DNA of 62,236 nucleotides, filler included, from Hausera hauseri (Eukaryota), in the NCBI GenBank assembly GCA_046269625.1. It is 11 parts of 11 records of this genome, joined end to end, with 100 filler letters (N's around TTAATTAATTAA, not from the genome) between each part and the next. Parts side by side here need not be neighbours in the genome. Positions count along the whole stretch, not along the records: positions 1 to 7,344 come from JBJURY010020675.1; 10 more parts are not named here. The stretch is one strand, 5' to 3'. A program made the position numbers and the translations under genes. The notes beneath the pieces were generated by a model, which did not search any database, was not told the origin of the DNA, and worked only from the letters and a program-made list of their open reading frames with translations. This document shows positions 1 to 45,239 of the stretch, in pieces. How positions within the stretch are numbered: the stretch's first letter is position 1; the number at the start of each line of letters is the position of its first letter.

Positions 1-1
1 T

Positions 2-517
2 GAAGGATTCGTTTGAAATTTCGTGTATTAGTGGCGTAGACTTTACACTTGGTTTTTCGTTGTGATATTCTTTGAGTGTGTTATACATATTTAATATAAT
101 TAAGGCTTTATCTCTCGTTCTGGTTGGGTATTTGATGTTATTGAATTTTAGAAAGATTTGCTTTTGGGTCAGTGTTCTTTTTGGATTAATATGTTCGTTA
201 TAGAATAGGTCACGAATGCCCACTATTTGATCAATGTTGAAAAGGGCTATTTGGGAATTAGTACTAAACACAGTCATCTCCATTATCATTTTTCCTACCA
301 ATTGATGTCGAATTGTAGGCCAGATTTGGTATTGGTCGGCTTGGCCGATTAAATCTGATTCTCTTATTTCAGTTATTTGGGTGTTATAGTTATCTACGCG
401 TTCTCGTGGGGCAATGAGCTGATCGAAGATAATTTTCCCGTTCAAATCCATTATAGTAATTTCTATAAGGGTAGCTCTTGAACGACTGTCTTTCTGATTG
501 TTGAGGTGGAGGATAAT
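2..517 (-). pseudogene. DEDDh (REX4/ISG20-like) 3'-5' exonuclease-like domain in LTR element A polyprotein; runs off window edge
   Basis: Hand translation (absent from the ORF track): RATLIEITIMDLNGKIIFDQLIAPRERVDNYNTQITEIRESDLIG...IRHQLVGKMIM...IVGIRDL. This follows the REX4 pattern LARVSIVN..G.V.YD.YV.P.E.V.DY.T..SGI...DL...L.GKILVGH. The Exo I DxE is replaced by IILHLNNQ; in-frame TAG at 518-520. Confidence 0.75.
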
Positions 518-554
518 CTATTCGTTGTTGTGTAGTTGGTGCTGATTCATATAT

Positions 555-884
555 TGTTGTATGAACCAGGCTAGAAATCCATCCACCTCTACATTTTACC
601 CATCCTTCAACATTAGCCTTTAACGCTCTTGTGTCAATTTCTATATTTCTTTCTACTTCCTCTTGATTTGGGTTTACTCAGTTCATTATCATTATTTTAT
701 ACAAGAGGTAGGACATAGCTGTTACGATTTTATTTCGAGATATGCCAGTTCCCATCATTCTCGAAAGAATATCTGTTTCCTGTATTTCGTTTATCCTCTC
801 ATCTATAGGAATGTCAGCAAACTGTTCACTAATTTTTGAAATATCATTTCTAATAGCTTGCATCAATGAATTCGGTATTTGCAA
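555..884 (-). pseudogene. Bcl-2-like domain (BH3/BH1/BH2) in LTR element A
   Basis: ORF 678-884 gives BH3-like LMQAIRNDISKISEQF and BH1-like MMGTGISRNKIVTAMSY. Reading past the TGA gives BH2-like EGWVKCRGGW, then a frameshift to FLAWF (compare WIQDNGGWDAFVELY in BCL2). Confidence 0.65.
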
Positions 885-2005
885 ATTGTATTGAATTCAA
901 CGAATGCATTATGCATTCTTGCTAACAAGGATTGTAATAATGTTGTTAATGGTACATTGTCCACATCATATTCATCCTCTGTTGTCAGAAATCTCCGGAC
1001 AACTTTATCGTCTCTGGAGTTTCTACCTTTGAGTTGATACAATTTTGTCGTTCCTTTTGGTCTTCCGCTATTTCTTTTATCCGTTTGTATTTGTTCTGAT
1101 ATAAGCATATTTATTTCAGTTTCTACTGGTTGAGCTTGATATTGATGTTCAACTTCTTGTATTTCTTTTCGCCTGACATCAGTGATAATTTCATCGATTA
1201 TCTCATGTTCTGACTGTCTATAGGTAATACATACCGGATTATATCGATTTTCCCAAATACCTACTTCGTATAGAGTTTTGTAATCTATCAACGTTCGTCC
1301 ATAAATGCGTAACTCCAACTCTCCTTGAGACTGACTTATTTTGTTGACCCTCTTTTAATATAGCTATTGTATCTAGTGATCTTATTCTTAGAACATGGAA
1401 GTCCTGATTATACTGTTGGAGGGTAACCATTACTTCGGGGTTTTCTCCAACTGCTCTCACTCTATCAGCATAACGATAAATTATATATCGCACAACATTT
1501 TGATATGGACTTGTGCCAGCTGCATACATCAGCAACAAGTTTAGTAAATGAACAAATTGTTGATGTGTGATTGTTGGTAACAATAGCATAGAAAGGTCTT
1601 GTCTAAACTGAACGCCATCAATTAGTTCTTGAATAGCATAATTTAATATTTTCCGGACTATTTCTGTGCCATCCTGATCTAAATCTACAGATGGAGATTC
1701 ATAACTCGGAGATTTTTCTTTCGTTCTCTTTTTCCTTATTCTTTTTATTTTCTCCTTCGGTTCATTTTCTCCACTTGATTTACTCTTCGCTTCCACTCTC
1801 GGAAGGTACATTCAGTTCTGGGGTCCTCAATTCCTCTTCTTGTATTAAGGGTTTATCCTTCTTTTTGACCCTTTTCTTTTCAGTATCTGATTCAGATGCA
1901 GGAGTCTTTTTAGGCCTGCCAACAACAGGAGCAATGAGTAGACTTTCGTCATTCATTTTCTGTCTCCTTTCACAAATTTGTTGCTCCTTTAATTCAAGGT
2001 ATTGC
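863..2005 (-). pseudogene. Unknown polyprotein segment of element A: charged linker, helical domain, AT-hook-like GRP motifs
   Basis: Overlapping ORFs 863-1318 and 1239-1811 on the same strand as Gag; motifs VVGRPKKT (~1905-1930) and NSGRPKGT (~1050-1075). Confidence 0.45.
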
Positions 2006-3118
2006 TATTTTAGTTCAGCTATTTTGTCTTCCTCTTCTACTATATTAGTTTTACTTTCTTTTAGTTTAGATCTAATCTTCAGCTGTAACTTTTCAATAGT
2101 TTCTTCTGGTTCTGTATCTGTAAGTTCATGCTCGTTATCAGTGTCAGATATATTGCCGACTATATCAACATTCTTTTTCTTCTGACTTGATTGTCCTTGG
2201 TTGGGACAGGAACGAGCCATATGTCCATATTTTTGACATACAAAACAAGAATTGCCCATCTTGGTTAACCGGAGGCTTTTTCATTGCAGGTTTCTGAGGC
2301 TGGTTTTGCCAAGAAACCCTCTTCTGCGGCTGCTGTTCCGGTTGATTCGAATATTTTTGAAAAGGCTTCTGCTGAAAGTTTTTCTTCTGTTGAAAATTTT
2401 TCGGTTTCTTATCATCATTTTTAAGATGTTTCTTTGTATTCTCAAGTCTCTCACTATTAACTTCAATCTTTCTTGCCTTACTGACGGCTTCTTTGTATGT
2501 ATCCGGATCTGCAACGATAATATAATTCTGGATTTCTTTATTTACTCCGTAACAAAATTGAGCCAGGAGGGCATCTTCCCTTGTATCAACATCTGCATAA
2601 GCTATCTGAGCCTATTTCTGAAGGGCACATGCAAACTCTTGCACGGTTTCGCCTTTTCGTTGACGTCTTCTATTGAATTCTCCAATTCGACCCTTTCCTA
2701 ACGGGTCTACTAAGAGCCTTTCCTCAAGAGCGTCCTTAAGACTAGCTCAATCAGCTTTGTCCTCTTCATCCTTTATTTGTGTATAAGCACTAAGTGTCAT
2801 GCCTTTGAGATGCAAGGGAAGCCTCTTCATCCTGAACTCGTCTGTCCAGCCAAAACTTTCAGAATACATTTCGTATTGCATAATGAATTCTGCATAATCC
2901 TGATCCGGTTTAGCCTCATATTTGTCCATTGGAAGCACCATGGTTCCTGATAAGTTATTTCCTAGGCCTTTACCTAATCCTGAATTCGACATTTCTGGAT
3001 TCTCAATCAAATTTATTTCAGGATTTTCGTCTAAATCGGGACTACTCCTTGCCGAATCAGTACGTGAAGTTGTGTTATTAGCGTATATACGTTTACTTCG
3101 TAAAGGATACGACGCCAG
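2005..3118 (-). pseudogene. gag: Ty3/Gypsy Gag (capsid domain plus CCHC zinc knuckle), disrupted
   Basis: DYAEFIMQYEMYSESFGWTDEFRMKRLPLHLKG...RRQRKGETVQEF...LLAQFCYGV (retrotransposon Gag); CFVCQKYGHMARSC knuckle; internal stops. Confidence 0.85.
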
Positions 3119-3123
3119 TGTGC

Positions 3124-3141
3124 CTCCTCACTCGGGCACCA
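3124..3141 (-). promoter_or_regulatory. Primer-binding site of element A (TGGTGCCCGAGTGAGG; possibly elongator tRNA-Met)
   Basis: TGG-initiated motif 1 nt inside the LTR's terminal CA; tRNA identity is tentative. Confidence 0.7.
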
Positions 3142-3142
3142 G

Positions 3143-4129
3143 TGATAAGTTTAAGGTTCGAATAAAATATAAATTTCTTCAGGAAAGTTTGGGTTTCGTA
3201 ACATCAAACTTATACTTACTTAAGTTGAAACTAGCTCAAAGTTTTTCCTTCCTTTAAGCCTCAGAAGATAATTAGTCTTAATAGCCGCCTGTGGGTCGGC
3301 CCAATAAATAATTTTAACCTAATAAATTCGATCACCAGGAGGAACACTGGTGTCGTTCCCGGATTTTATAAAGTTTAGGACTCTACGGTTTTTTATGACC
3401 GTAAGAGAAAGAAAGAGGGTCCCTGTTTAGTTTAATCAATTCCTATTGCTATACGTATTGATTAATTATATTCAAATAAAAATCAAAAATATACAGTTAC
3501 AATAAGTTTTAATAATCAGAAAAAAATTACAAGGTTAAAAATGAAAGATACTCAATGAAAGTAAAATGTAAAATACAAACTTACATGAAGTACAACTATG
3601 CATCATATAAACACTTTTTTGTCAACAATAATGTCTGCAAGGGTTTATATATAATGTCCGAGACTCTCAAAGATACAGAAATTCCATAATAAATAATAAT
3701 TAAATTTAACACTACCAAATAAAATAATGTTAATTTGTGTCTAAAATTCAATGACACACATAATATCAAATGAAATTAATTCAATGTAACACACAATTGT
3801 TTTCACAATAATAAAACACACAATTGTTTTCACAATAATACACACAATTGTTTTCACAATAATATAATAGGATCAGGTGAAAATAACAAGGTCACCATTT
3901 AGATCATCATTTGATCATCATTTGTCAACATTAAGGTTAATCGGATTGCCCAACTAAACAATTGGGTTCCAACACTCCTGATAGATTATTATCCAAATAT
4001 TCTACATTAAAACTTAATAAAGTAAGAAGTAAGAATATGTAAAATTCCATATACATCACCTTAAGGTTAATCATTATATGTTGACACGAAGCAAAGGTCA
4101 AACACCCTTGTGTTATCCCTGTGTTAACA
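3143..4129 (-). repeat. 5' LTR of element A (~987 bp, TG...CA)
   Basis: Minus strand begins TGTTA at 4129 and ends TATCA at 3143 next to the PBS. At 4130 the sequence resumes colinear with the second element-B copy (ATGCAAC.AATGGA, cf. 16511). Contains 3 direct repeats of CACACAATTGTTTTCACAATAATA (~3790-3865). Confidence 0.8.
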
Positions 4130-7100
4130 ATGCAACGAATGGAATCTGTTGAATGCTTCTTTTTGAAGCGATTTAGAGAGGATGACCTTAGGATTATTGG
4201 GTTTGAAAGTGTCAAAGGCCACACCGTCGATGGTTTTTCACGATTTAAAAGATTTAAGGATGTCAGGAGGTGGCTGGTTTGTTTAAGTTTGAATTGAGGA
4301 AAATTGGTGTGAAATCAATCGAGCTGACAGATCGAGACAAAAAATCAGCTACCAAATTGTCTACCTCGCTTAGGTGCTTAATTTCAAAATTAAATGTTGA
4401 AAAATACGATATTTGCCTCTCTTGACGTGGCGAAGGCGATTTCATAGTAAGAATTTGAAGCAATGGCTTGTGGTCCGTTTGTATTGTAAAAGTTCGTGCA
4501 GTTAATAGATGTTTGAAGTGTTTTATGGCAAGGACCATTGCAAGCAACTCTCTGTCAGAGGTGAAATATTTTGCTCTTGTGCCGTGAATTTTCGAGAGAA
4601 GAATTCTAATGGCTTATGGAATCAATTTTTGTCTTAATGGATGACAGCACCTGCAGCTGTTGTGTATGCGTCCGTGGTTAAGAAGAGTTCTGCATGGGAG
4701 TCTGAATAGGCCAGGATTCCCACGGTTGTTAAATTGTCTTTGAGGTGATCAAAAGCGTTGACTAGCTTGGCAGTCCATTAAATAGGCTGTTTCTTCTTGC
4801 CAGAGCTTAGTGATGCAAATGGAGCGGTTAAAGTGGAACAATGTGCAACATACTTATGAATAAAGTGCAAGGTTCTGAGGAAAGAACGCATCTCTGTTAA
4901 TGTACGTGGTAGTTTTATGTTTGTGAGCTGTTGTGGTGCGCTCTAGCTGAAGTGAATATCCGGAGGAGCTAATAACATATCCTAGGAAGTTGACCTTATC
5001 TTGAGAAAAGGAGAATTTGGCGAAATTAATTTGCAAATTGTTTTGGTGCAAGTGCTGGAAGATTAAACGTAAGTTTCCAGAGTGCGGCTTTTAGGAAGAT
5101 GATGCAATTAGGATATCATCAATATAGAGATAGGCAAAGTCTAAGCCTGACAGGACTGTATCGATATGCCTTTGGAAGGTCTGGGTAGAGCTACGGAGTC
5201 CAAAAGGCATGAAAGGGTATTTGAAGAAGCCGAAAGGTGTAATGACAGCCGTTTTCGGTATGTCTGCTGGGGCCACCGGAATTTGGTGGTATGCTTTGTG
5301 TAAATCAATGCAGGAAAAGATGATCGAACCGTGAAGCCTGTGGAGGATGTCGTTGATTAATGGTAGAGGGTAGACATCCATTATAGTTATGATATTGGGT
5401 TGGCGGTAATCACCGCATGGGCGAAAGGTACCATCTTTTTTGGAACCACATGTAGTGGTGAATTCCAGGGGGATTTTTATCTTCTGATTATGTCTGATTT
5501 TTTCAGTTCAAGAAACTCAACCTCCACTGCCTGTCTGCTACGAAGCGATAGCGGACGGACCTTTCGCCGTATTGGTCTCTGATGTGCTGTTACTATGTGA
5601 TGAAAGGTGGATTGAGGTGGTACGAATGATTTGTTATTTTGCAACAGACGCGTGCAGGAAGACGAAATGTATTGCTGTAGATTAGAAGGCAGCGAAGAAA
5701 AGTTACCCGATGTCGTCAATGCATCGTGACTGGATGCAGTTGAGATATGAGTTGTAAACGAGGTGTTGTGACTGGGTGGTATTTGGTGCAGGATGTTAGT
5801 GTTGAAAATAGTGTTGGCAGCTGTGCTATCAGTGATAAGTGTCACACAGCTGGCAATATCGTATTTCGCACCGTAGTAAATATTTCTGTATAATGTATGA
5901 TTATAAAAATAATTTAAATCGGAAGTCGTTGGTATTGGGTTTCTTGCTTTGTTGTACTGTTATCCATGGATAGCCAAAACTCGACAGAAAATAAAATGAT
6001 TACAATATTAAATCCAACATCAAAAGAGAGTAAATGGAAATCCGCGTGTTGTATTTCGTCTGTACAATATTAGCAAATTCTGAAACGTATCATATAACAA
6101 CAAATCTGCCCGTATTGAAAAACATTACATAATAATGAGAAACTTAAATATCAAAATTAGGCACAGTCGAGTGACAAAGCAAAAAATAGACGTGAAATAT
6201 TAAACGTTCGAAATTGGCTGAATACACCAGATTTTGATTTTATACATTTAAACAAGAAAATGTTTTTTTTTTATTTTTGTCAAAATTATCGAGTGGGTGA
6301 ATATGGGCACCATAGTTGGCTTCAGCATTGACTTGTTGAAAGCAATCGCCTTGGTGGTGACCGAAATGCTGCTAATTTGATTAAAATTATTTCCGAACTT
6401 TAAGGAGAATCGTTTGCAATCTACAATTAAATTATAGTGGGACAGAAAGTCTAAACCCAATATAGGTGTGCGTATATTGGCTACTGTAAATTTCCATGTG
6501 AATGTGTTTGGAAATTGTGGAAGAGTGAAAGTTAATTTGGTAACTCCACAAATTTGTAAGGGTTCACCGGACGCAGGGAACAGTTGCTTTTTTGACGTGA
6601 AATTGTTTTAAATGTGTTGTGTTGGTGGCAGTAGAGAGATTGCTGCGTCGATGTTTATAAGAAAGTTAATGTTTTGTTTGTTGGAGTGACGACTGCTGCT
6701 TCCAACGTGAATACAGCAAAGGAAATGTGTCGGCTATCTTTTTGTAAGTTGTTGCCTTTGTTAGGGCTTGCCGTGTGTCCTCGTCGCGAAATCAGTTTTT
6801 TGTAGTTGGTGAATTTGGCCTATTGTGCTGTGTAAATTTAGTTGTGTTGATTTTATTTTGTGTGTTGTAATTACAGGAAGGTAGAAATTTTTGTGCATTT
6901 GTGCCAAACTTCGAGTGATAGATGCAAACGATGTTGCTTGTATTAAAATCGGGGGAGTAAAATTTACAACCGATTCAAAATTTCTGGGCATTTTTACCAA
7001 ATTTGCTATGATAATAGCAAATATATGACCGCGCGGAGGCAGCGTTAATTCGCTTAATTTTTTGTTTATGTTGTTAATTGTCTTCTGTAATATTTCTTTT

Positions 7101-7344
7101 TCCGTGCGTAATTGCGCAATTTGTTGTGCAGCATTGCATTTTATTGTTGTTGGTCTGTTGTTAATGCCGCAGAAATAGTTGGTCTTGTGTGTGAGTGCAG
7201 TTCTTCATATACTTTGTCTGCCAGTTCGGCCAACTTGTCCAGAGCCATGGAGTCTTCGACCACAATAAGCAAAGTTCTTATTTGTAGGGGCAAGGCATTT
7301 AAAAATAGCGACAAATAAGTTTTGGACTATGCTCAGAGGTGCCG
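4130..7344 (-). mobile_element. Ty3/Gypsy element B copy 1 (CsRn1-like): gag end, protease, RT, RNase H, start of integrase; degenerate
   Basis: RT motifs YPLPLINDI, IDLHKAYHQIPV, MPFGL, YIDDIL; RNase H ELLAMVLAIKHF, TDHKPL, NLVADFLSR; colinear with 16511-19390. Confidence 0.9.
5933..6314. mobile_element. 382-bp insertion with 5-bp target-site duplication (GTTGG)
   Basis: Absent from element B copy 2 at ~18310; GTTGG at 5928-5932 and 6315-6319. Confidence 0.7.
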
Positions 7345-7444: not shown

Positions 7445-7650
7445 GTGTAATGTAATGTAGTGTAGTGTAGTGTAGTGTAGTTTAATGTAATGTAGTGTAA
7501 TGTAATGTAGTGCAGTGTAGTGTAATGTGGTGTAGTGTAGTGTAATGTAATGTAGTGTAGTGTAATGTAGTGTAGTGTAATGTAATGTAGTGTAATGTAA
7601 TGTAGTGTAATGTAGTGTAGTGCAGTGCAGTGTAATGTAGTGTAATGTAG
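7445..7650. repeat. Pentanucleotide microsatellite (GTGTA/ATGTA)n
   Basis: Direct reading. Confidence 0.95.
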
Positions 7651-8010
7651 GTGGAGAAAGGGGGCGTTTGTAAAATGAATGGAGAAAGTTGCTGTACTCT
7701 CATTCCTAACAATACTGCCCCTGATGGCACTATAACAAAGGCTTTTGAAGGTTAGAAATCATCAAGAATTGAATTGGCCGACAACAGTGGCACAGAAAAC
7801 CCATTCAGTATGTGGATGGGAACATTTTGTACAATATAAAGAAGTGATGCGGAGCTTTATGAGCTCTACCTGCTGTGCTCTGGCCCTGTTGGTAGTGTGT
7901 GGCTGCAGCTGTGTTGCCTTGCATGCGGACAGTACTATATGAGTCAGGAGACTGGGGAGTCATTGATGGGGAGTTATGCTCAGTCAGAGTTAGAGGTCGA
8001 AATATATTAA

Positions 8011-9849: not shown

Positions 9850-10400
9850 AAAAGGTACCTGCTTGTGATCATTGACATGTTCTCCAAGTGGGTGGAAGCT
9901 CAACCTACCACTCACCAGGATGCACTAGCAGTGACAAAATGCCTACTAAGGGAAAATACTCCTAGATTTGCACTCCCTAGGAAAGGTACATCTGATATGA
10001 TGTTCCAGCATTTGTGAGTACTCATCACTGATGTGATGTTCCTGCACTCACACAAGCACTGTGCATATCACCCTCAACGTGCAGGTGTGGTGGAGAGAAC
10101 AAATAATACAATCACACAGAAAATGTCTCATGAGACAGGACTAGCCTGGGTGGAGGCCCTCCCACTAGTGTGGATGAGTTTGAGGGAAAGAAAATCCTCC
10201 AGAACTAAACTCTCACCATCTGAGATGATATTTGGGAGACACCGGCCCTAGAGGACGATCACATGTGAAGGTACCGTGCTATGTTGTGCTCTGTGCTATC
10301 TGATGTACACAGGAGGGTGAAGGAGACTCTTCCTACACCAGCAGTGAGACACGGAGCGTTCCAAGTGCTTCTAACAGCTCACACAGCAGATATAATAAAT
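9850..10400 (+). mobile_element. Endogenous retrovirus (class I / epsilon-like) integrase remnant
   Basis: RYLLVIIDMFSKWVEAQPT...AVTKCLLRE, HCAYHPQRAGVVERTN, WVEALPLV, LSPSEMIFGR. Confidence 0.8.
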
Positions 10401-10444
10401 AATGCACGCAGGGCTGAACGCAGGCCCCTCAGTGCAATTATCTT

Positions 10445-11160
10445 CCTCTATGTACCCCCTGTACATCTCAGTCCCTCTCAGTACCCTTCAGAAGATCACT
10501 GTGTACTCCCTGTACCTCCTGGTGCTCCTCAGTACCAATCTGAACCCCTCTGTGTACGCCCTGTACCTCCTGGTGCCCCTCAGTACCATTCTGAACTCCT
10601 CTGTGTACCCCTTGTACCTTCTGGTGCCTCTCATTTCGCTTTGTGAACCTCTCTGTGTGCCACCTGTACCTCTCAGTACCTCTCAGTACCTCTCAGCACC
10701 CTTCTGAACCACTCTGTGAACCCCCTGTACCTCCTGGTGCCTCATATTTCCCTTTGTGAACCTCTCTGTGAACCCCCTGCACATCCTGGTGACTATCAGT
10801 ACCCTTGTGAACCTCTCTGTGTTAACCCTCATAACACCTGGTGACTCTCAGTACCCTTCTGTGAACCCCCTGTACAAATAAGTACCCTTCTGAAGCTCTC
10901 TGTGTTAACCCCTGTACCTCCTGGTGACTCTCATTAAGCTTGGTAACCTCTCTGTGTATGCCCTGTACCTCCTGGTGCCTCTAAGTAAACTTCTGAACCT
11001 CTCTGTGTACCCCCTGTACCTCCTGGTGACTCTCAGTACCTTTCTGAACCCCTCTGTGTACCCCCTGTACCTCCTGGTGCCTCACATTACCCTTGTTAAC
11101 CTCTATGTGTAAACCCTGTAGCACCTGGTGTCTCTCAGAACCCTTCTGAACCTCCCTGTG
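10445..11160. repeat. ~50-bp minisatellite (CTCTGTGTACCCCCTGTACCTCCTGGTGCCTCTCAGTACCCTTCTGAAC); further arrays at 13710-13900 and 14520-14900
   Basis: Direct reading of tandem units. Confidence 0.9.
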
Positions 11161-11164
11161 TTAA

Positions 11165-11840
11165 TATGCACGAATCATACTAGGGAGTTTTGCGCATTTT
11201 TTATTTGCGATGAATGTGCATGAATAATTATCGCGAATTTTGCGCGTTTTGCCCGTTATTTGCTATTAATGTGCATTAATCATAATCGCGAGTTTGTCGC
11301 ATTTTGCGCGTTATTTGCGATTAATGTGCATGAATAATTATTGCGAGTTTTGCGCGTTATTTGTGATGAATGTGCATGAATCATAATCGCGAGTTTGTCG
11401 CATTTTTGCGCGTTATTTGCGATTAATGTGCATGAATAATTATCGCGAGTTTGTCGCATTTTTGCGCGTTATTTGCGATTAATGTGCATGAATCATAATC
11501 GCGAGTTTGTCGCATTTTTGCGCGTTATTTGCGATTAATGTGCATGAATAATTATCGNNNNNNNNNNNNNNNNNNNNNNNNNNNNNNNNNNNNNNNNNNN
11601 NNNNNNNNNNNNNNNNNNNNNNNNNNNNNNNNNNNNNNNNNNNNNNNNNNNNNNNNNCGTTATTTGCGATTAATGTGCATGAATCATAATCGCGAGTTTG
11701 TCGCATTTTTGCGCGTTATTTGCGATTAATGTGCGTGAATCATAATCGCGAGTTTTGCGCGTTATTTGCGGTTAATGTGCATGAATAATTATCGCGAGTT
11801 TTGCGCATTTTTGCGCGTTATTTGCGATTAATGTGCATGT
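11165..11840. repeat. 56-bp CpG-rich satellite, with an assembly gap at 11558-11657
   Basis: Unit TGCGATTAATGTGCATGAAT(AATT/CATA)ATCGCGAGTTTGTCGCATTTTTGCGCGTTATT. Confidence 0.9.
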
Positions 11841-12249
11841 AGTTTAATATAATGTAATGTAGAGCAGTTTTGGTTACCATGGTAATGATTGTAACAGGAA
11901 TATGAGCTCCTGAAACGTTAAGTGTTGTTGTTGATGTGTTGGACATGTACAACAGTAATAAATCATCTAAACCTTAGATAAACACATCGAGCACATGTGG
12001 AGCCATTTTTGGGATAATTGGACCATAAACAAAGAAGAACATCAATCAAGTTTTCAGCTCTCGACTCAGACCTGCTCAATCAAATCAAAACAACAGAACC
12101 TGACCAACAGAAGAAAGAAAGAAAAGAAGAAAATCAGAGGAAAACAACATTCAGGAACCCAGGCTGAGTAAAAGGAAGGGGTAAGCTTGTTATTGAGCAT
12201 TTCTTTTATTTACATCTGGAAATACTGTTAGCTTTAGCTTTAGCTACAA

Positions 12250-13303: not shown

Positions 13304-13710
13304 GCACGCACGCTCACACGTACAGACAGTCAATATCCCCTCATTTTAAGCATCCAAAAAAGAGCTATAAAATTCTATAAACATATTAAAACCAGCGACC
13401 CCCAATCACTCCTTTACAAAGCTCTGTCAAATCAAGAACATTACATTCACAAAAGCCCCCTCAGCCAATTAATCCTAAACACCACCCACCTTACACCCAC
13501 CGACATCACACACTCCACACGCCCCCATCACACACTCATCAGAACCATCACACACTCCACACACCCCCATCACACACTCATCAGAACACACAGAGACAGG
13601 GAGAGAGAGACAGAGTCCAGACTCTGCCCTCACTGCGACTGGTCATTGGTGGAGACAGAGCTGCACTTTCTCACTGAATGTCCCAAATACAAACTTATCA
13701 GAAACAAATA
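12250..13710 (+). mobile_element. Heavily deleted non-LTR retrotransposon (RTE-X/L2-like)
   Basis: Endonuclease end NGRELVHLC...LNGRIRGDSFGRFT...SVVDY...SDHC; RT fragment GRGVRQGCSLSPT.FNIYI; C-terminal LCPHC...VETELHFLTECPKY. Confidence 0.8.
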
Positions 13711-14980
13711 TGTACCTCTGTACCCCACTGTACCTGCTGGTGCCTCTCAGTACCCTTCTGAACCTCTCTGTGTACCTCTCTGAACCCTTGTGAACCTGTC
13801 TGTATACCCCATGTACCTCCTGGTGTCTATCAGTACCCTTCGGAACCTCTATGTGTACCCCCTGTACCTCTCTGTACCTCTCAGTTCCCTTGTGGACCTC
13901 TCGTGTAGAATCTAATCTCCCTCATGTGTCCATAGTTTGTAATTGCATGGAATTTATGGCATTTTGGTTTTCTGAGGTGAATTCATTTTTAAACTTATTT
14001 AATTTATTGAGGCTATGCTTAAAAAAAGTTCATTAGGACAATGTAAGGGGGGGTCACAATAATTTCACTGATTAATCCCAACACTAAGCCATAACCCCAA
14101 TAATAAATACTATTAAAAAATAATTCACCTCATAAAAACAACAAAACATAAAGTTCATGTAATTGCACACAATGGAGATATTTCTCCTTAAAACTCCAGA
14201 GCTCAATAAAGTGCTGCAGGTAGAAGAAGTGAACAAGCACATGTTAGTGATTTGTTATTTAATTGTTTTCCCCACCAGTGAGCCAGTAAGGAAACAATTT
14301 GTATTTGAATTTATTTATAACATTCCCCTAATGTAGCCCCAATTTACTTATTCTTAACCATTACCTGAATAATTATAAAAAATAAATAACACGACATAAA
14401 GTCAACGTAATTACAAATAATGGACACCAGATGGCGACATTTCTCCAGGAACTCCACATTAAATGTCGCCCTCAAGTGTCCATTTTGTGTAATTACATGA
14501 ACTTTATGACATATTGGTTCTGTGTACCACCTGTGCCTCTCTGTGCTTCTCAGTACCTTTGTAAAACTCTCTGTGTACCCCCTGTGCCTCCTGGTGACTC
14601 TCAGTACCCTTCTGAACTTCTATGTGTACCTCCTATACCTCTCTGTACCCTTCTGAACCTCTCTGTGTACCCGCAGTACCTCCTGGTGCCCCTCAGTACC
14701 ATTCTGAACCCCTCTGTGTACCCCCTGTACCTCCTGGTGTCTCTCAGTACCGCTGTGAACCTCTCTGTGTACCACCTGCACCTCCAGGTGCCTTTTAGTA
14801 CCCTCATGAACTATCTATGTGTTCCCCCTGTACCTCTCAGTACCCTTCTGAACCTCTCTGTACACCCCCTGTACCTCTCTGTACCTCTCAGTACTTTTGT
14901 GATAATAAAAAAAACTGTAATTCACCCCAAAACACCTGAAGGCGACATTTAACCCTAAATTACAGAGGTTAATAAATGCT

Positions 14981-15021
<41 letters not shown>

Positions 15022-15039
15022 TATCATCTGCACAAAACT

Positions 15040-15425
15040 CGTACTGTGTAAAGTACTGTTGTGTATCTGTACTGTGTGTTGTACTGTTGTGTATGTGTAC
15101 TGTGTGTTGTACTGTTGTGTATCTGTACTGTGAGTTGTACTGTTGTATATATGTACTGCTGTGCATCTGTACTGTTGTGTATCTTTACTGTGTAATGTAC
15201 TGTTGTGTATCTCTACTGTGTATTGTACTGTTGTGTATCTGTACTGTGTGTTGTACTGTTGTGTATCTGTACTATGTATTGTACTGTTGTGTATGTGTAC
15301 TGTTTGTTGTACTGTTGTGTATATGCACTGTGTGTTGTACTGTTGTGTATCTGTACTGTTGTGTATCTTTACTGTGTAATGTACTGTTGTGTATCTCTAC
15401 TGTGTATTGTACTGTTGTGTATCTG
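15040..15425. repeat. Compound TGTTGTGTATCTGTAC minisatellite, preceded by (CA)n at ~14984-15018
   Basis: Direct reading. Confidence 0.9.
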
Positions 15426-15525
15426 NNNNNNNNNNNNNNNNNNNNNNNNNNNNNNNNNNNNNNNNNNNNTTAATTAATTAANNNNNNNNNNNNNNNNNNN
15501 NNNNNNNNNNNNNNNNNNNNNNNNN

Positions 15526-15796
15526 TGCACCTGCACATAATCAATCAAGGTGCAACTCGATGTGCTCTATCGATTAGCACTTTATCCCGATCGATTTGAT
15601 CAATACTGCACTGTGCAGCGATCGATTTGTCAAATGTGCAAAAGTGCCCTTAGCAACGGTGCCTAACGGTACCATTGCCTAGCACTTTATAGATCAATTG
15701 TGCTCCGGGTGCACTATCGATCGGCACATGTGCAAAATCGATTTATCGATTAACCCCCCGGGGGTTCTGTGCCCGAATCCCCATTTTCTCCCTACT
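15526..15796. mobile_element. Polinton/Maverick terminal inverted repeat (TGCAC/ATCGAT-rich family) ending in ...CTACT, inserted in Gypsy integrase
   Basis: Homologous to 27367-27592, 45510-45907 and 56015-56400; all end in CTACT (5'-AGTAG on the other strand, the canonical Polinton terminus). Confidence 0.8.
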
Positions 15797-18700
15797 TCTG
15801 ATCTCAATGAAGTGTCTCTGGGCCGCTAGTATGGTTTCGTCTGTAGGAATATTGTCCAGCTCAGCCAGCTCGAATAATGATCTGATAGAAGTACCAAATA
15901 ATGCTTCTGCAGGAGAGCAGCCTGTAGACGTAGATTGTGTGTTCCGCCAGCCAAGCGGAACGTACGGATGGAGTGCAGTCCAACTGCGATTGGATTCAGC
16001 AAGGATTTTGAGAGACGTTTTCATCATTCGGTGAAAGCGTTCGAGAACGCCATTCGATTGAGGGTGATATGGTGACATGTGAATGTGGTTAATACTCAAT
16101 CGATTTACAAGAGCTTTGAAGAGGTTGGATTCGAACTGTGGGCCTTGGTCCGAGATGATGTGGCGAGGTGATCCAAACCTGCTGATCCAAGTGCGGATGA
16201 AAACGCCTGCGATTGTTTCTGTGTTGGTGCTCCGAAGCGGGATAGCCTCTGGCCATCGCGAGAAACGGTCCATCATTGTGAGAATGGACTGATGGCCGTT
16301 GTCTAAGTGTAATGGGCTTAAAAGGTCAATGTGAACAGATTCGAAAGGAGACGTGCAGGAAAAATGAAATAATGGTGGCTTTAGGTGCTTAGTAACTTTG
16401 TATTTTTGGCATGCTACACACGGCCTAATCCATGCCTGAACGTCAGAGCGCATCGATGGCCATACTACTTGGTGTTGTAAGAGTCGAAGAGTGGCCTTGA
16501 CACCGGAATTATGCAACAAATGGATGCTGTGGAATGCTTCTTTTTGAAGCGATTCAGAAAGCATGACTTTATAATTATTATTAGGTTTGTAAATGTCAAA
16601 GGCCACACCGTCGGTGGTTTTGCACGATTCAAAAGATTTAAGCATGTCAGGAAGTGGCTGGTTTTGTTGAAGTTTGGATTGAGGAAAAATTGGAGTGGAA
16701 TCAATCGAGCTGATCGATCGGGACAAAAAGTCAGCTACTAAATTGTCGATTCCGTTTATGTGCTTAATTTGAAAATCAAACGTGGACAAATACGATATTT
16801 GCCTCTCCTGACGTGTAGAAGGCGATTTCATGGTGCGAATTTGAAGCAAGGGCTTGTGGTCCGTTTTTATTGTAAAGGTTCGTACGGTTATCAGATGTTT
16901 AAAGTGTTTTACGGCAAGGACCATTGCAAGCAACTCTCAGTCAAAGTTGGAATATCATTCTTCTTGTGCTGTAAATTTTTTAGAGAAGAATTCTAATGGC
17001 TCATGGGATCCATTTTTGACTTAATGGAGGACAGCACATGTAGCTGTTTTGGATGCGTCCGTGGTTAAGAAGAGTTCTGCATGGAAGTCTGGATAGGCCA
17101 GGATTTCCACGGATTTTAGATTGTCTTTGAAGTGATCGAAAGCGTTGACTAGCTTGGCAGTCCATTGAATAGGCTGTTTCTTCTTGCCAGAGCTTAGTGA
17201 TGCAAATGGAGAGGTTAGAGTGAAGCAGTGTGGAACGTACTTATGAATAAAGTGCAAGGTTCCGAAAAAAGAACGCATCTCTGTTGATGTACGTGGTAGT
17301 TGTATGTTTTTCAGCTGCGTGATGCGGTCTGGCTGAGGTGAGTATCCGGAGGAGCTAATAACATGTCCTAAGAAGTTGACCTTATGTTGAGAAAAGGAGA
17401 ATTTAGAAAAATTGATTTGCAAGTTGTTTTGGTGCAAGCGTTGGAAGATTATACGTAAGTGTTCAGAGTGCTGCTTCGAGGAAGATGATGCATTTAAGAT
17501 ATCATCAATGTAGGGATAAGCGAAGTCGAAACCTCATAGGACTGTATCAGTATGCCTTTGGAAGGTCTGGGAAGAGCTACTGAGTCCAAAAGGCGTAAAA
17601 AGGTATTCGAAAAGGCCAAAAGGTGTAATGACAGCCGTTTTCGGAATGTCTGCTGGGGCCACCGGAATTTAGTGGTATGCTTTGTGTAAATCAATGCAGG
17701 AGAAGATCGTTGAACCATGGAGCCTGTGAAGGATGTCGTTGATTAATGGTAGACGGTAGACATCCATTTTTGTTATGGTATTGAATTGGCGGTAATCACC
17801 GCATGGGAGAAAGTACCATATTTTTTGGAACCACATGCAGTGGTGAAGACCACGGGGATTTGGATCTTCTGATTATTCCTGATCTTTCCAGTTCGAGAAA
17901 TTCAGCGTCCACTGCCTGTCTGCGGCGAGGCGACAGCAAGCGTACCTTTTCACGTATTGGTCTTTGGTGTGCTGTTACTATGTGATGGAAGGTGGATTGA
18001 GGTGGTATGAATGATTTGTCCTTCTGCAGCGGACGCGTGCAGGAGGATGAAATGTGTTGCTGTAGATCAGAAGGCAACGATGAAAAGTTATCCAATGGTG
18101 TAGATGCATCGTGACTGGATGCAGTTGAGGTATGAGTTGTAGACGAGGTGTTATGACTGGGTGGTATTTGGTGCAGGATGTTCATGTTGAAGATGGTGTT
18201 TGCAGCTGTGCTATTAGTAATAGGCACCACGCAGTTGGCAATATTGTATTTGTTGCCGTAGTGAAAATTTCTGTATAATGTATTATTATAAAAATGATTC
18301 AAATCGAAAGTCGTTTTTTTCAGTATTGACTTGTTTGAGGTGATCGCCGGTGTGGTCACCGAAATGTTGCTAATTTGATTAAGATTATTTCCGCACTTTA
18401 AGTAACATCGTTTGCAATCTACAAGTAAATTGTAGTGGGACAGAAAGTCCGAACCCAATATAAGTGTGCATACATTGGCTATTGCAAATTTCCATGTGAA
18501 GGTGTTTGCGAGGTGTGGAAGAGTGAAAGTTAATTTGGTAACTCCAAAAATCTGTAAGGATTCACCGGATGCAGTGAACAGTTGCTTTTGTGAAGTGCAA
18601 TTGTTTTGTATCTGTTGTGTTGGTGACAGTAGAGAGATTGCTGTGCCGGTGTCTATAAGAAAGTTAATGTTTTGCATTGTGGAAGTGACGACTGGTGCTT

Positions 18701-20212
18701 CCAACGTGAAAACAGCAAAGAAAATGTGGCGGCTGTCTTTTTGCAGGTTGTTGCCTTTGCTAGGACTTGCCGTGTGTCCTATCGGCGAAATTAGTTTTTT
18801 GTAGTTGGTGAGTTTTTCCTACTGTGTTGTATGAATTTAGTAGTGTTGGTCTTGTTGTGTGTGTTGTAGGTACAGCCAGGTAGGCATTTTTGTGCTTTTG
18901 TTCTAAATTTTGAGTGGTAGATGCCAACAATGTTGCTTGTATTAAAATTGGGGGAGTAAAATTTTCAACCGATGCAGCATTTCTGAGCATTGTTACCAAA
19001 TTTGCTATGATAACAGCAAATAGACGTCCGCGCGGGCGAAGGCGACCGTCTTTGATGTTGATTAAATACGTTAGGGGAAACAGCCCTAGAAAAACCTCGT
19101 CGAGATAGAGTTAATTCGTTTAATTTTTCATTTATGTTGTTAATTGTATTCTGTAACTTTTCATTTTCCGTGCGTAAGTGCGCAATTTGTTGCTGCAGCA
19201 TTGCATTTTTTGTTGTTGATCTGTTGTTAATGCTGCATAGATAGTTGGTGCTGCATGTGAGTGCAGTACTTCGTATGCTTTGTCTGCCAGTTCGGCTAGC
19301 TTGTCAAGAGCCGTGGAGTCTTCTATCACAGTTATCAAAGCTCTTATTTAAAGGGGCAATGCATTTAAGAAGTAGCGTCGAATAAGTTTGGGATTGTACT
19401 AAAATGTTACGCCAAGGGTGTTGAGGTGAGACAAGGATGTGCGTAGGAATTCAGAAGGCTTCTAAAGGGCCATGGCGTTGTCGTTAAAGAATCTTTAAAT
19501 GATGGAGTCGATTGAAGGCTCAGTAAGCTTGAGAACGGCATTATGAAGTTAAGCATATGGATCAGCGTGCTGAAGGCTATCAATGGTATTGGTAATCTTA
19601 GTTTTGATGGAAGCTGGTAAGTGGAAAAAGAGGCTGTTGGCTTTGGCTAAAAAGTCGACGACGTTTTGTGATTGGAGCCAGAATTAGTGCAGTTTTACAC
19701 AAGTTTGAGTAGAGTTTTGACTGTCGAGGAAATATTCTGTGCAGGGTAAATGAGTGAGGAGTGTGTGTTGTGTAGAGATGTTGGAAGGGCTGTGCTTGGG
19801 TAAATGAATGACGTGGATCTGTGGTTTGGTAAGTTTGTACGTGGTATCAATTGTGGGTGATGAATCCATGTTACCACGGATACGGAAGTGGATGTGAATA
19901 CAAATGTGGGTTGACGATGATTGTAGAGTTCCAGCGAGGGGTATTAGAGATCCGTTGTATGTGAGGTAGAAATCAGACGAGTGGAGTAAGGCAGAGATGA
20001 AGTTGTGAATGTCTGCATTGTGTAAATGCAGTGCTGTGTATGTGTATATATATTTGTTATTTAGAAAAAGAAAGACGGAGAAGGGAGAGGTGATATGTCC
20101 GGGGGCGTGCTGCGGGACAACAGCGAACGGCGCCGTCTGACCCACCGGCGCAGGATGGGCGGCAGGGACTTCAGCCTCGTTGCGGCGGGTCCAAAATTTC
20201 GGGGTGACCGAA
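15797..20212 (-). mobile_element. Ty3/Gypsy element B copy 2 (CsRn1-like): Ubl-gag, protease, RT, RNase H, integrase; degenerate, no LTR visible
   Basis: CHCC Gag motif CCYHSKFGNNAQKCC; protease FLIDTG; RT/RNase H; integrase HSIHLLH...CVACQ, VHIDL, DRFSRWPEA, SDQGPQFES, PQSNGVLERFH. Degenerate tRNA-Trp-type PBS CGGTCACCCCGA at ~20199-20210. Confidence 0.9.
19870..20085 (-). other. Ubiquitin-like domain directly N-terminal to Gag of element B
   Basis: FSVFLFLNNK...DFYLTYNGSLI...TLQSSSTHICIHIHFRIRGN|MDSS resembles ubiquitin QRLIFAGKQL...TL...STLHLVLRLRGG|M. Confidence 0.55.
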
Positions 20213-27366: not shown

Positions 27367-27592
27367 AAATCCAATATTATTGATTTTTGCACACTTGCAC
27401 ATGTGCTGCACACTTGCACTGTGCACAAATCGATGCACCCTGATGTGCTCTATCGATTAGCGGCACCGTTGCTAGGCACTTTATGCATCGATAGTGTACA
27501 GTGTGCAATATCGATCGGCACATGTGCAAAATCGATTTACCGATTACCCGACGCCCCCTGGGGTGGGACAGAAAGCACATTTCCTCCCTACT
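27367..27592. mobile_element. Polinton/Maverick TIR (TGCAC family) ending in CTACT
   Basis: Close match to 56125-56400; ends CCCTACT at 27592. Confidence 0.8.
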
Positions 27593-28023
27593 GACATAGT
27601 CTTCATTTGACAGAAAGTATCCATTCTCCAGTTCATTAAGAAATTGTACACAATCAATTTTGCTACTGCATATTTCTTTTGTGAGCCATTTAATTTCAGC
27701 TTCTAAGTCTATTTTTGAAGTATATGGATAATTTAGGAAAAACATAATTAAATACATAACATTTGTCACAGAAATTGTTGAAACAATGCTATTAGCACAC
27801 CTTTATTTATATCCAAATAAAAGGGGTGGGAATAGTTAAACCCAATCCACCCCAGAAAATGCTTTGTCTACTGCTTTCCTATTGGTCAGTTTTCCTTACC
27901 CCGATGACGTGTTCTCATCTCATTGGTCCACTTTCCCTCCTCCGATGACGTGTTTTGCGCTGATTGCTAACTTTCCTTCCCTGGCGGGGGGTGGTTGGGG
28001 TAATGTCCTCCTTTCCACCTACT
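27593..28023 (-). mobile_element. End of a second, different Maverick-like element (AGTAGGTGGAAAGG...) with start of a first ORF
   Basis: CCACCTACT ends at 28023; GC-rich end with paired TGACGT and ATTGG boxes; resembles the AGTAGGTAGAAG terminus at 33176; cuts off the glycoprotein. Confidence 0.6.
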
Positions 28024-29625
28024 TATATTCAAATTCTGTGATGACCTATTTCTCGGATATTTTGAAATAATACGTGTTTTCTTACTGCTTCCAGATCTGT
28101 CAAGGAATGTAATCCACTGGTGGGAAGTACTCTATTAACTTTAAACTTTATACCTTTATCCACTGGTAATAATCCAATCGTCTGTGGTATATTCATCATA
28201 GTTGGTTGGCGTGTTTTAGTCCATCTTCCATCGTTGAGTTTGAAGGCCGGATAGAAGTCTTTATAACATAGTACGAAGCTGATTTCCGTAGGTAACAATA
28301 ACTTTCAGGTAATAGGGTCCACATATCCTACTTTAATTATGTTTTTATCGTTGTATTGGACCATTAATTCGTTCGTGCAATTTGCTTTTGGTGATGTTAC
28401 TGGCATTACCTCTATCGGTGGGCATTGGTACACATGAAGTGTCTCACCTTGTGCTCTACTAAATATTCCAGGGCGATATCCCATAATTAAGGCAATATGT
28501 TCGGAAAATTCTCTGGCTAATATCAAGTCGTGCTGGTTCAATTTGTGAATGATTTTACAGTCTCGCAGTACCATCGTCTTACACAACTCAACTAAATCCA
28601 TTTTTGCGGTGTAATAGATATAATCTATCTTGTTATTCGTATATAGTTACCACTTTATATCTTCGGTTGGTAACTTTCCTGTATTTGCAATAGTTATGTT
28701 TGTTACAAAAGATCTTTATTAGATGTAGAATAAACGGCATTCGATCCACAAGTTGATACTGCTCCTTTACGAGTTAGTACGATTCTGGCCTTGTCACTGG
28801 ATGACATTAGAACTTTCAGGGAAGTGGTTTGTTTTAAGGCTTGTGAATAGGTAAACTTATATTATGGTTATGCACAGGTTCTTGATATTCGTCATCATAA
28901 TATAAATCACCTTGTACTTCGTACATAGACACCTGTTTAAGGAAGACTAATGGACATATCATGATCGTTTTTCCCAGACTAATGTAGATTCTCCCAGGAT
29001 ACACACTCCGTCAGAATATGTGCAGGATGGTGCGGTTAACATTTTTCCTGTGATTGCATCGAAATTTACTTTACATTCCTTTATAGTGACGGTATAATCT
29101 TCTATTTGTACTATAGCGGATTCTTTTTGTCCATTTGTCATCATACTTTTTCCTTTACAAGCTCCACCGTATCCGGGCCATACTTTTCCGGCTGTAACTA
29201 CACGTGAATAAACTCGTTTTCCTATACCTGCCTGTACTGGCTGTTGAAGGCCTACATGAATTGAATCAGTAGCTTTTCTACAATTTTCAGCTGTTATTGT
29301 CACGAGTTTAGGTAGTCCTTGTGGAATAATTACTGAATTCCACGAATTATAGCCGCAGTTATAAGCGAATACAACTTAATTAACTTGACATTCCTTTACT
29401 TGAACGTGTTGGTAACTGATTCTTTGATACAGATTATAGTTATAAGGACCTTCTTTCTTTACTAATATTGGATTAGCGCTTTGACATTTACCTATATCCA
29501 CCAGTGAAAGTCTAGCTGTTATTTCCGATCTGGAACAATCATAGGCTTCTGACGCTTTCATGGTTTTTATACTACTCACAGCTATCAAGTATAGTAGCAG
29601 ATAAATAATTTCTACTACCCAACCT
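28024..29625 (-). pseudogene. env: Chuvirus-type (gB-related) envelope glycoprotein, disrupted and 3'-truncated
   Basis: Hydrophobic signal IIYLLLYLIAV, then AYDCS...LSLVDIGKC...LYQR...VKEC...CG...GACKG...CTYSDGVC...TLVW; later YTNNKIDY...RDC...GYRPG...GETLHVYQC..IEV...CTNELMV...DPIT...C...PAFKLNDGRW. Confidence 0.8.
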
Positions 29626-29659
29626 GAGACATTGGTATCCTTGGGGTACATTAATCTAG

Positions 29660-30043
29660 TGGGGTTAAATTTCTTCAGGATTTTATCCCAACCACCTTGT
29701 TTAGTTACCCAATCTTTTGTTAGTTTATCCATGTAATTGGCTAAGTCCCTTACTATATGGTATAACTTGGCATAGACCTCTGTTTGGTTTTTGAAGCTAA
29801 CCACTATGCATCCTTGTGCCATTAGCAATCGGTTTTGATCACATTTCTTTAATAATCGTGTTAAGGCTTTATTTGAATTCCTTTCAGTTTATACTTCTGA
29901 AGCAATTTTGTAATTTGCGATGAGAAATTTCTCGCGGTTTCTATTATGGATTGCAATGAAATTGTTGTAATTGTTGGTATCTTTTTGAGTTGATTTGGAT
30001 TAGCTTTCTTGACTAATTGTTCTAGGAGTTCATGGGTTGTCAA
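29660..30043 (-). pseudogene. Bcl-2-like domain directly upstream of, and in frame with, the glycoprotein
   Basis: BH2 LANYMDKLTKDWVTKQGGWDKILKKF; weak BH1 LLKKCDQNRLLMAQG; weak BH3 LQSIIETARNFSSQ. Confidence 0.65.
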
Positions 30044-30049
30044 TATTAC

Positions 30050-31200: not shown

Positions 31201-31665
31201 TCCGTATTGCTGGTAAGGCTATTCGTAGTGTTTTCTGGCTTTCTATTACCCATGGTACATTGTATTCAACTTGTATAAGTTTTCCAGTATTTGTCGAGAT
31301 ATCTTTGCGCCATAATTTCTGAGTTATGACCATGATAAACATTTGTACGTTTTGTCGGTTTGTTCCATATCGTAAAGGGTGGTTAGATTTGCTGGATTTA
31401 TTTTCAGTGTATTCAGTAAATCTGGCAATTGGCGTCCGATGATTACTTTTCCTGGTAGATACTTATTCTTGAATTTGCTTACCGATTCTTGTCGTTGAGA
31501 GTTGGACCATCTACTGTATTCGGTATATTTTCTTGTGTCTGGTATGTTCCGGTACACATGAATATTAAGAATTGTCTTTCCTTCTACGTTTTTGGCAGTT
31601 ACATGAGTAAATCCTTTTTGATCTTCTTTGGTTTTGCATCTATCTGTGAATATTATTTCTCTTTC
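31200..31665 (-). pseudogene. Divergent DEDDh exonuclease-like domain
   Basis: IIFTDRCK...FTHVTAKNVEGKTILNIHV...YLPGKVIIGRQLPDLLNTLKI...LYDM follows VALDCE...LARVS.VN..G.VLLD..V...L.GKILVGH.L..DL..L...IRDT. Confidence 0.55.
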
Positions 31666-34230: not shown

Positions 34231-34322
34231 AAGCATAATAGTAGTAATTTTAAAAATAAATTTCTTCATAGTACGACGAAGAAGACGAAGATTATGAAAA
34301 CGTGAGATACATGGGATTTTAT

Positions 34323-35475: not shown

Positions 35476-35481
35476 AATCAA

Positions 35482-45134: not shown

Positions 45135-45239
45135 ATATTTAAATACCGTTATTCTTTGTTAATACATTTTATATCAAAATATTATGTTGTCTTCTCGATA
45201 AAGTAATGTGGGACATAGGATAATAATGGAACAATTTTA

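Follow-up and report, generated by a model that had tools for sequence, protein, structure and literature searches.

A decayed multi-copy LTR retroelement of Hausera hauseri, represented by its 5' part, with a Bcl-2-like domain in its Gag polyprotein and a probable Burro-like layout

The minus strand of positions 2 to 4129 of the window (the whole stretch of 62,236 nucleotides, filler included, from assembly GCA_046269625.1) carries the 5' part of an LTR retroelement. In our reading, which we hold to be probable, this is a decayed copy of a multi-copy element with the layout of the Burro retrotransposons, and the exonuclease-like piece at its downstream end was likely joined to the Bcl-2-like domain by an internal deletion. 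The LTR with its insertion point, the colinearity with an intact relative down to nucleotide 486, the Env that follows the Bcl-2-like domain in this relative and in a second element, and the junction to the exonuclease-like piece were read directly from the sequences.

The 5' LTR (3143..4129, minus strand, 987 bp) has the termini TGTTAA...TTATCA, an imperfect terminal inverted repeat, and lies within an older Gypsy element, whose integrase it interrupts. Upstream of the LTR this integrase matches that of a second Gypsy copy (16511 onward) as far as 4130 and not beyond, so that the 5' edge of the LTR can be placed exactly at 4130/4129. One base after the LTR lies a PBS-like tract starting with TGG (3125..3141, minus strand), read from the sequence, for which the tRNA is presumably elongator Met; no tRNA gene is present in the window. 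The TG...CA LTR of about 1 kb and the PBS of the original prediction are thus borne out, and the TG...CA ends, the adjacent PBS and the sharp insertion boundary are all features of an LTR retrotransposon, the 3' LTR and any target-site duplication lying beyond the contig end. The contig terminates at window position 1, and the absence of pol is therefore in part an effect of truncation. As expected from the first inspection, neither of the protease and RT motifs D[ST]G[ASC] and Y[VILM]DD occurs in the three minus frames of 1-3140, nor do they occur in the intact relative.

The element is an abundant, multi-copy LTR retroelement. With a query that includes 270 nt of the adjoining Gypsy, 11,736 of 15.5 million records matched in one sequencing run (X1) and 1,192 of 9.55 million in another (X2). 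The matching contigs cover 30 of 30 bins of the query, are mostly less than 95% alike and include diverged exonuclease pieces. Gag-Bcl-2 has a greater contig depth than the exonuclease or mid-LTR positions, although such depth cannot rank the parts.

The intact relative, P0002, is a protein of 1130 aa in a single open frame that ends inside Env. It aligns to the window copy in five pieces, in the same order and with 63-84% identity. Its order is Gag, knuckle, charged coil, helical domain, ubiquitin-like segment, Bcl-2-like domain, hydrophobic segment and mononegaviral-type Env; the Pfam matches are zf-CCHC (197-212), ubiquitin (473-522, E 0.03), Bcl-2 (651-748, E 0.055, or 0.002 as a domain) and Monjiviricetes_fusion (PF24664, from residue 793, E 6e-19). 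No exonuclease and no match to MATH, BIR or ankyrin was found across the 1130 aa. P0002 is the only intact relative from protein searches of up to 1.84 billion sequences: a homologue search with the Bcl-2 piece retrieved one protein among 1.84 billion, residues 375-800 of P0002 retrieved P0002 itself alone from 6720 candidates, none of 4193 proteins was a longer relative, and its sequence cluster has one member. Related loci were found neither in viral contigs nor in metagenome contigs. Because P0002 holds the same order in one frame, the Bcl-2 cargo is, as far as sequence comparison goes, a trait of the family and not a peculiarity of the window copy. Protease-RT directly after Gag was not seen in this single relative, where the Bcl-2-like domain is followed by Env; Env and the ubiquitin-like segment had both been missed in the element order first proposed.

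All parts of the window copy lie on the minus strand. The Gag capsid region (2429..2992, from the ATG at 2992) is 84% identical to P0002 3-189 and has two premature stops; it matches Ty3_capsid under the Pfam cut-off (E 0.005-0.025), and the top PDB match of P0002 is the dArc2 capsid (E 0.007). A single CCHC zinc knuckle follows (2206..2247, PF00098, E 2.8e-5), and Gag capsid and knuckle thereby stand as predicted. The next 1.1 kb or so had been described as charged and helical. This is correct for a charged region, probably coiled-coil or disordered (1786..2205, P0002 197-348, 71%), and for a conserved domain of helical appearance that belongs to no known family (1401..1709, P0002 369-489, 74%) and whose sole profile match is a weak one to PDH_C (E 0.03-0.09). 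The description overlooked a weak ubiquitin-like segment (1256..1400, mapped by alignment from PF00240 on P0002 473-522, E 0.031), through which a frame change near 1353 runs. The Bcl-2-like domain (579..950) changes frame near 887 and is interrupted by a stop at 680. The window copy is a pseudogene: the pieces aligned to P0002 contain four frame changes, together with stops at positions 2749, 2614, 2007 and 680.

The presence of a Bcl-2-like domain inside the Gag polyprotein, as in the original prediction, is supported by the single frame of P0002 and by PF00452, matched over positions 5-100 of 100 with E 0.002 on the P0002 domain. In alignment A2, three of three rows match this family (best E 0.0016-0.0022), including that of the barely related second element, at 19 bits against a curated cut-off of 31.4 bits; the Bcl-2 and ubiquitin matches are all under the Pfam cut-offs, and the support is consistent though below threshold. 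A PDB search with the domain gave Bcl-2 or Bax in 37 of 40 weak matches (E 0.18-1.8), over the C-terminal third only. The position of BH1 is occupied by SRNK instead of the usual NWGR signature. It could be argued that the helical domain ahead of Env has no homology to Bcl-2 and that its GGW likeness arose by chance. The sub-threshold PF00452 scores, the lack of a usable match to this part in the ESM Atlas and the weak similarity between the domains of the P0002 family and the second element (16 of 1000 shuffles reach the score) are in line with such an explanation. However, the near-complete PF00452 match in all three rows, the dominance of Bcl-2/Bax among the PDB rows and the place ahead of Env, the same as that of the Burro BCL2, make it highly improbable.

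The AlphaFold model of the domain (pLDDT 40) has six helices in an order compatible with Bcl-2; VIA-align of this model and of the exonuclease model (pLDDT 39) gave only generic helical matches, with neither the Bcl-2 nor the exonuclease family among them, and the models are too weak to weigh either way. NCBIfam and PHROGs profiles gave nothing relevant (one SrsR match of 16 bits, the cut-off being 425), and a match of the Bcl-2 piece to a designed repeat protein was set aside as a sum of weak repeats. The BH2 motif had been thought to continue through a frameshift into FLAWF. This reading is rejected: P0002 aligns in frame through GGWISSL up to nucleotide 486.

The second element (27367-31782) likewise carries Bcl-2 (E 0.01) and a hydrophobic segment, and its Env falls in the same family (E 1e-8 and 6e-14). 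It is very diverged, the identity between its Env and that of P0002 being 34%. The hydrophobic segment lies between BH2 and the Env start AYDC, which is 36 aa after BH2 in P0002 and 22 aa in the second element, and in both the strongest hydrophobic 19-mer is the one between GGW and AYDC, with KD values of 1.77 and 2.03. Both thus have a C-terminal hydrophobic anchor feature after BH2. Past BH2 the window copy has no 19-mer over KD 1.2, and both the hydrophobic segment and Env are missing; the Env of P0002 is in frame after Bcl-2. A stretch of the second element upstream of its Bcl-2 (31309-31662) looked exonuclease-like by eye and was rejected: it had no PDB match, a two-sequence profile gave nothing relevant, and 1825 of 2000 shuffles equalled or bettered its similarity to the first piece. 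The two elements also matched each other in a ubiquitin-like stretch, at a score that was non-significant (84 of 1000 shuffles).

The exonuclease-like piece (2..476, minus strand) is N-truncated, out of frame with Bcl-2 and open to the contig end. A DEDDh-like fold of ISG20/REX/RNase_T type, predicted as a REX4/ISG20-like domain, is supported by RNase_T in 23 of 30 ESM Atlas matches (score 0.91; 148-157 shared features, hence distant) and by the only three PDB matches at E<=10, ISG20L2, ISG20 and SDN1 (E 0.2-0.56). Pfam gave no match, and a homologue search none among 368 candidates. The catalytic D-E-D-H-D set was not recovered in the window copy, the one copy assessed: the match begins past ExoI, the HND of ExoII lies opposite non-acidic residues and ExoIII was aligned by no method. 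One related contig differs here by two gaps, so that the family may differ from this copy. Similarity to P0002 stops at 486 and similarity to the exonuclease contigs starts at 476, which places the junction at 477..485 (minus strand). Two relatives' contigs cease to match at 476, one of them running on for 71 letters of unlike sequence, and 476-486 is bridged by none of the 16 pieces displayed out of about 13,000, so that the junction rests on this assembly.

Since Env follows Bcl-2 in P0002 and the piece is N-truncated and in another frame, starting at the junction, the proposed placement of the exonuclease within Gag and its proposed replacement of protease/RT are not supported, and decay is the most likely source of the latter layout. 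An internal deletion in the window copy likely brought the two parts together. Alternatively, the exonuclease could derive from another repeat or a nested element, joined by recombination, insertion or misassembly, and would then not be family cargo. Its absence from P0002, its truncation and frame, the unlike continuation of one contig past 476, the lack of bridging pieces among those shown and the sharing of DEDD exonucleases among rotifer retroelements that are unrelated to one another, as described in PMC5408684, are compatible with such an origin; yet the piece is oriented like Gag, its base composition is ordinary, diverged copies of it occur in both runs that have the Gag-Bcl-2 family, and neither a new LTR nor a terminal repeat was seen where the two parts meet, and we regard a foreign origin as unlikely. 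Nearest to the idea of the original prediction is a non-autonomous subfamily that has been amplified with the order Gag-Ubl-Bcl-2-exonuclease, lacks Env and pol, and is mobilised in trans. Diverged contigs with the exonuclease in two runs and the lack of protease/RT motifs in 1-3140 would fit. We consider it quite improbable, given that the junction removes the region of the first exonuclease motif and the hydrophobic anchor and breaks the frame, that the relatives' contigs end or diverge at 476, and that the sole intact relative has Env at that place.

To the debit of our overall reading stand the absence of a family pol from 1-3140 and from P0002, the sub-cut-off Bcl-2 and ubiquitin scores, the weak and partial PDB matches and the lack of a usable Atlas match for Bcl-2, SRNK at BH1, the single intact relative, which ends in Env, and the lack of bridging pieces among those displayed. 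Under this reading, cleavage of the polyprotein would release capsid, nucleocapsid and cargo. The hydrophobic segment may act as an internal signal sequence of Env and, after cleavage, stay behind to anchor the tail of the Bcl-2 mimic, which would then be held at membranes and dampen apoptosis in element-expressing cells. By analogy with Burro, in which PR-dUTPase-RT-RH-IN come after Env, protease-RT-RNase H-integrase probably lie after Env. The ISG20-like domain would probably derive from a region nearer the 3' end of the element, and may trim or shield its RNA. Both the anti-death and the RNA counter-defence functions are inferred. A bolder proposal, which we judge doubtful, is that of a compact enveloped Burro-like lineage, possibly non-planarian, with a dual anchor/signal segment and a family-wide RNA counter-defence of ISG20/REX type, its families having split in one genome with an Env identity of only about 34%. 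If one segment served as both anchor and signal, each envelope made would also deliver the anti-death protein.

Large DNA viruses encode Bcl-2 mimics of divergent fold with a C-terminal hydrophobic anchor, which are presumably anti-apoptotic. The domain described here may be comparable in its divergence, its anchor and its presumed function, but it lies inside a retroelement polyprotein, and its anchor may double as an Env signal.

Retroelements with apoptosis regulators are already known from Burro, and the IAP module of Burro1 is said to protect planarian stem cells (PMC13465017, citing Lee et al. 2026). If confirmed, a much smaller Gag-Ubl-Bcl-2-Env core in two distant families of one genome would point to the minimal conserved part of the Burro design, and the Bcl-2 module, a natural domain of about 140 aa, would be easy to test. 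The ISG20-like nuclease could be a second counter-defence or RNA-processing module and, if the host lies outside planarians, a lineage described as planarian-specific becomes wider.

Burro (GYPSM1) elements are giant gypsy-like LTR retrotransposons of planarians, described in PMC6431247 with Gag, CCHC, a Ubi2/SUMO-like domain, BCL-2 and then a mononegaviral-fusion-like Env in frame before the protease. The suspicion that the present element may be a Burro relative is supported by the order Ubl, BCL2, Env in P0002, although both cargo matches are weak (E 0.03; 0.002-0.055) and the likeness is drawn from the published layout and not from sequence alignment to Burro. As described there, the two share many copies, an N-terminal Gag with CCHC in a long cargo-bearing polyprotein, ubiquitin-like, BCL2-like and Env parts in frame, and a protease that does not directly follow Gag. 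Burro differs in having two to three knuckles instead of one, MATH, BIR or ankyrin cargo and a length of about 30 kb, whereas the present element is compact in the part covered here (Env from residue ~793, LTR below 1 kb, 3' part off the contig) and accompanied by an ISG20-like piece, no exonuclease being named in the PMC6431247 description. Moreover, the GC content of the contigs is 34-42%, against more than 70% AT reported for S. mediterranea in PMC11410931. Relative to the Burro description in PMC6431247, the compact layout, the DEDDh-type cargo and the possible dual anchor/Env-signal segment may be new. No paper on a Burro-like element with ISG20/DEDDh, or on one from outside the planarians, came up in the literature consulted; such a domain may already have been named in Grohme 2018 or Lee 2026.

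Accessory DEDD 3'-5' exonucleases are shared with the Juno/Vesta LTR elements and Terminons of bdelloid rotifers. According to the account in PMC5408684, theirs are RNase D-like DEDDy enzymes with intact catalytic residues in a separate ORF3, unlike the truncated, ISG20/REX/SDN1-like piece (RNase_T, DEDDh) found here. Fusion glycoproteins shared with viruses are also carried by Env-bearing Ty3/gypsy elements and Anakin, reported as widespread in invertebrates (PMC13524379; PMC12440569); a word search of PMC13524379 returned no mention of Burro, Bcl or exonuclease. The element described here differs from these, as far as they are described in the two papers, in that its Env shares the frame of Gag and comes after a Bcl-2-like domain.

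The window was built from about 12 separate contigs of 4-7 kb each with N spacers between them (N44-TTAATTAATTAA-N44, one being N100); the apparent repeats D1 and I5-I25 are these spacers. The element under study belongs to contig 1-7344. This contig breaks off at position 1, and the element's second LTR and target-site duplication fall beyond its end. The same contig carries a degenerate, decayed Gypsy pol (RT and RNase H, minus strand) from about 7300 (7344) to 4130. A second decayed copy of ordinary Gypsy pol (minus strand, 15746-19371, match 16511-19371), 85-87% identical to the first, continues into integrase; the first is split by the studied element within the integrase zinc-binding region. 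Because Gypsy similarity stops at 4130 with TGTTAA next, the point where the insertion begins on its 5' side is fixed. The predicted LTR of about 1 kb with its PBS is thus borne out: on the minus strand it starts with TGTTAA directly after 4130 and ends with TTATCA at 3143 (987 bp), and a PBS-like tract with a TGG start runs from 3141 (minus), a putative match to the end of elongator tRNA-Met.

Queried by HMMER with the window Bcl-2 piece (X at its stop), a set of 1.84 billion representative proteins returned a sole match, P0002, an intact polyprotein relative of 1130 aa, 76% identical to that piece. By tblastn, P0002 aligns to window positions 2989 to 486 as five pieces in order, crossing four frame changes. 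These, together with stops at 2749, 2614, 2007 and 680, disrupt the window copy, which is therefore a pseudogene; about 55 additional Q/K/P-rich residues precede its knuckle compared with P0002. Pfam assigns to P0002 a CCHC knuckle (197-212), ubiquitin (473-522, E 0.031), Bcl-2 (651-748, E 0.055) and Monjiviricetes_fusion (Env, from 793, E 6e-19). A helical-looking domain before the ubiquitin-like segment (window 1401-1709, P0002 369-470) is well conserved (74%) and is assigned to no family. The Gag-to-pol cargo as a whole is not peculiar to the window locus, since P0002 carries it too, and no protease or RT motif was found in the 1130 aa of P0002, which end within Env. The proposed placing of an exonuclease after Bcl-2 is not supported as a family layout, since in intact P0002 Env comes after Bcl-2.

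All three rows of the Bcl-2-like domain alignment match PF00452. The isolated P0002 domain covers positions 5-100 of the 100-position model (19 bits, E 0.002), a score below the cut-off. A profile from the three rows drew 40 PDB sequences at E<=10 (best E 0.18), 37 of them Bcl-2 or Bax. The ESM Atlas search with the Bcl-2 part gave no usable match, and the predicted fold (pLDDT 40) left fold comparison uninformative. The near-full-length match and the PDB rows speak for the original prediction of a Bcl-2 module, the sub-threshold score and the Atlas result against it; the domain is likely homologous to Bcl-2, with a putative anti-death role. The claimed BH2 running into FLAWF is replaced by GWVKCRGGWISSL, which the P0002 alignment places in frame.

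The exonuclease piece gave nothing relevant in Pfam, NCBIfam or PHROGs. Its only three matches at E<=10 among 177,635 PDB sequences were ISG20L2, ISG20 and SDN1, and 23 of 30 ESM Atlas matches were RNase_T clusters (score 0.91, feature counts of a distant relative); rows below 0.9 include arenavirus NP and DEDDh_C. Because of these PDB and Atlas matches, the proposed RNase_T/DEDDh fold class is probably correct. Its inclusion in the Gag polyprotein is not supported: the piece and Bcl-2 lie in different frames in the window copy, P0002 similarity stops at 486, and the ISG20 alignment begins past the ExoI region, with ExoII falling on non-acidic residues. P0002 Env finds no match below 490 in the window copy. 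The exonuclease piece may be 3' cargo native to the element, or it may be of foreign origin. One contig from each of two sequencing runs, X1 and X2, reaches 476 across it at about 85% identity; beyond 476 the X2 contig has 71 more letters unlike the window, and none of the 16 matches listed (of about 13,000 contig pieces) bridges the junction. We read 477-485 as a break that would have taken away the hydrophobic segment and Env, and probably pol as well.

Pfam and P0002 comparison revealed another element of this type, strongly diverged, at 27367-31782 (minus). On this strand it has a Bcl-2-like domain (~29670-29870, E 0.01), a mononegaviral-type Env with stops and frameshifts (~29600-27900, E 1e-8 and 6e-14), of the same family as P0002 Env and 34% identical to it, and a hydrophobic segment between the two. 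In both P0002 and this element, the most hydrophobic 19-mer sits between the BH2 GGW and the AYDC opening Env. Cellular Bcl-2 proteins end with a tail anchor soon after BH2; the segment could serve at once as internal signal of Env and anchor of Bcl-2. Two upstream stretches picked out by eye were rejected: an exonuclease-like one (31309-31662) failed all tests, and a ubiquitin-like one (30301-30666) passed none.

Contigs matching window 1-4400, a stretch that takes in 270 nt of older Gypsy, numbered 11,736 of 15.5 million in X1, possibly related to the source sample, and 1,192 of 9.55 million in X2; contig depth yields no copy number. All 30 bins were covered in each run, and only 774 (X1) and 60 (X2) records were at least 99% alike. 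Judged from these contigs, the element is a large, diverged repeat family present in two organisms.

Elsewhere in the window, Polinton/Maverick-like fragments occupy 31883-36156 (capsid-like ORFs by eye, 33862-34712), 41447-45933 (weak DNA_pol_B_2 match, 43858-44439, E 0.01) and 51804-56468, with an inverted ~80% copy at 52823-54142. A LINE ORF2 broken by stops (47973-51675, minus) has endonuclease, RT, RNase H and zinc finger. Two plus-strand ORFs with Cys-rich motifs (46228-47669) look DNA transposase-like by eye and have no Pfam match at E 0.01. Host genes are represented by a G-protein beta WD40 frame of 203 uninterrupted aa (58430-59038, minus, E 3e-66) and a Nup93/Nic96 fragment (60620-61018, plus, E 9e-7). 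Taken with the LINE, Gypsy and Polinton-like pieces, these fragments would be in keeping with an animal host. Satellite arrays lie at 10400-11170, 13700-14870, 11185-11885, 15013-15431 and 7445-7660 (periods 51, 46/56, 28 and 5 nt); two contigs share the unit of 51 nt.

In the published account, Burro, the giant planarian LTR elements, opens with a Gag that has 2-3 knuckles, followed in order by Smc, MATH, Ubi2/SUMO-like, BCL2, in-frame Env, PR, dUTPase, RT, RH and IN, and its Env matches mononegaviral fusion proteins (PMC6431247). Another account describes an IAP module of Burro1 that protects stem cells and terms Burro1 planarian-specific (PMC13465017), and rotifer LTR elements are described in a third as carrying DEDDy exonucleases (PMC5408684). 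Our literature search, which lay outside the primary Burro accounts and supplements (these may name an exonuclease), turned up no paper that places a DEDDh domain in a Burro-like element. A non-planarian Burro-like provirus combining a dual-use anchor with a family-wide ISG20-like module seems rather improbable. The suggested kinship with Burro fares better in architecture than in membership, which is unproven without pol: the Ubl-BCL2-Env order is common to Burro and P0002, the P0002 protein being shorter. By analogy, the element would work like Burro; known here through a broken copy, this compact form of the Burro-type design is new.
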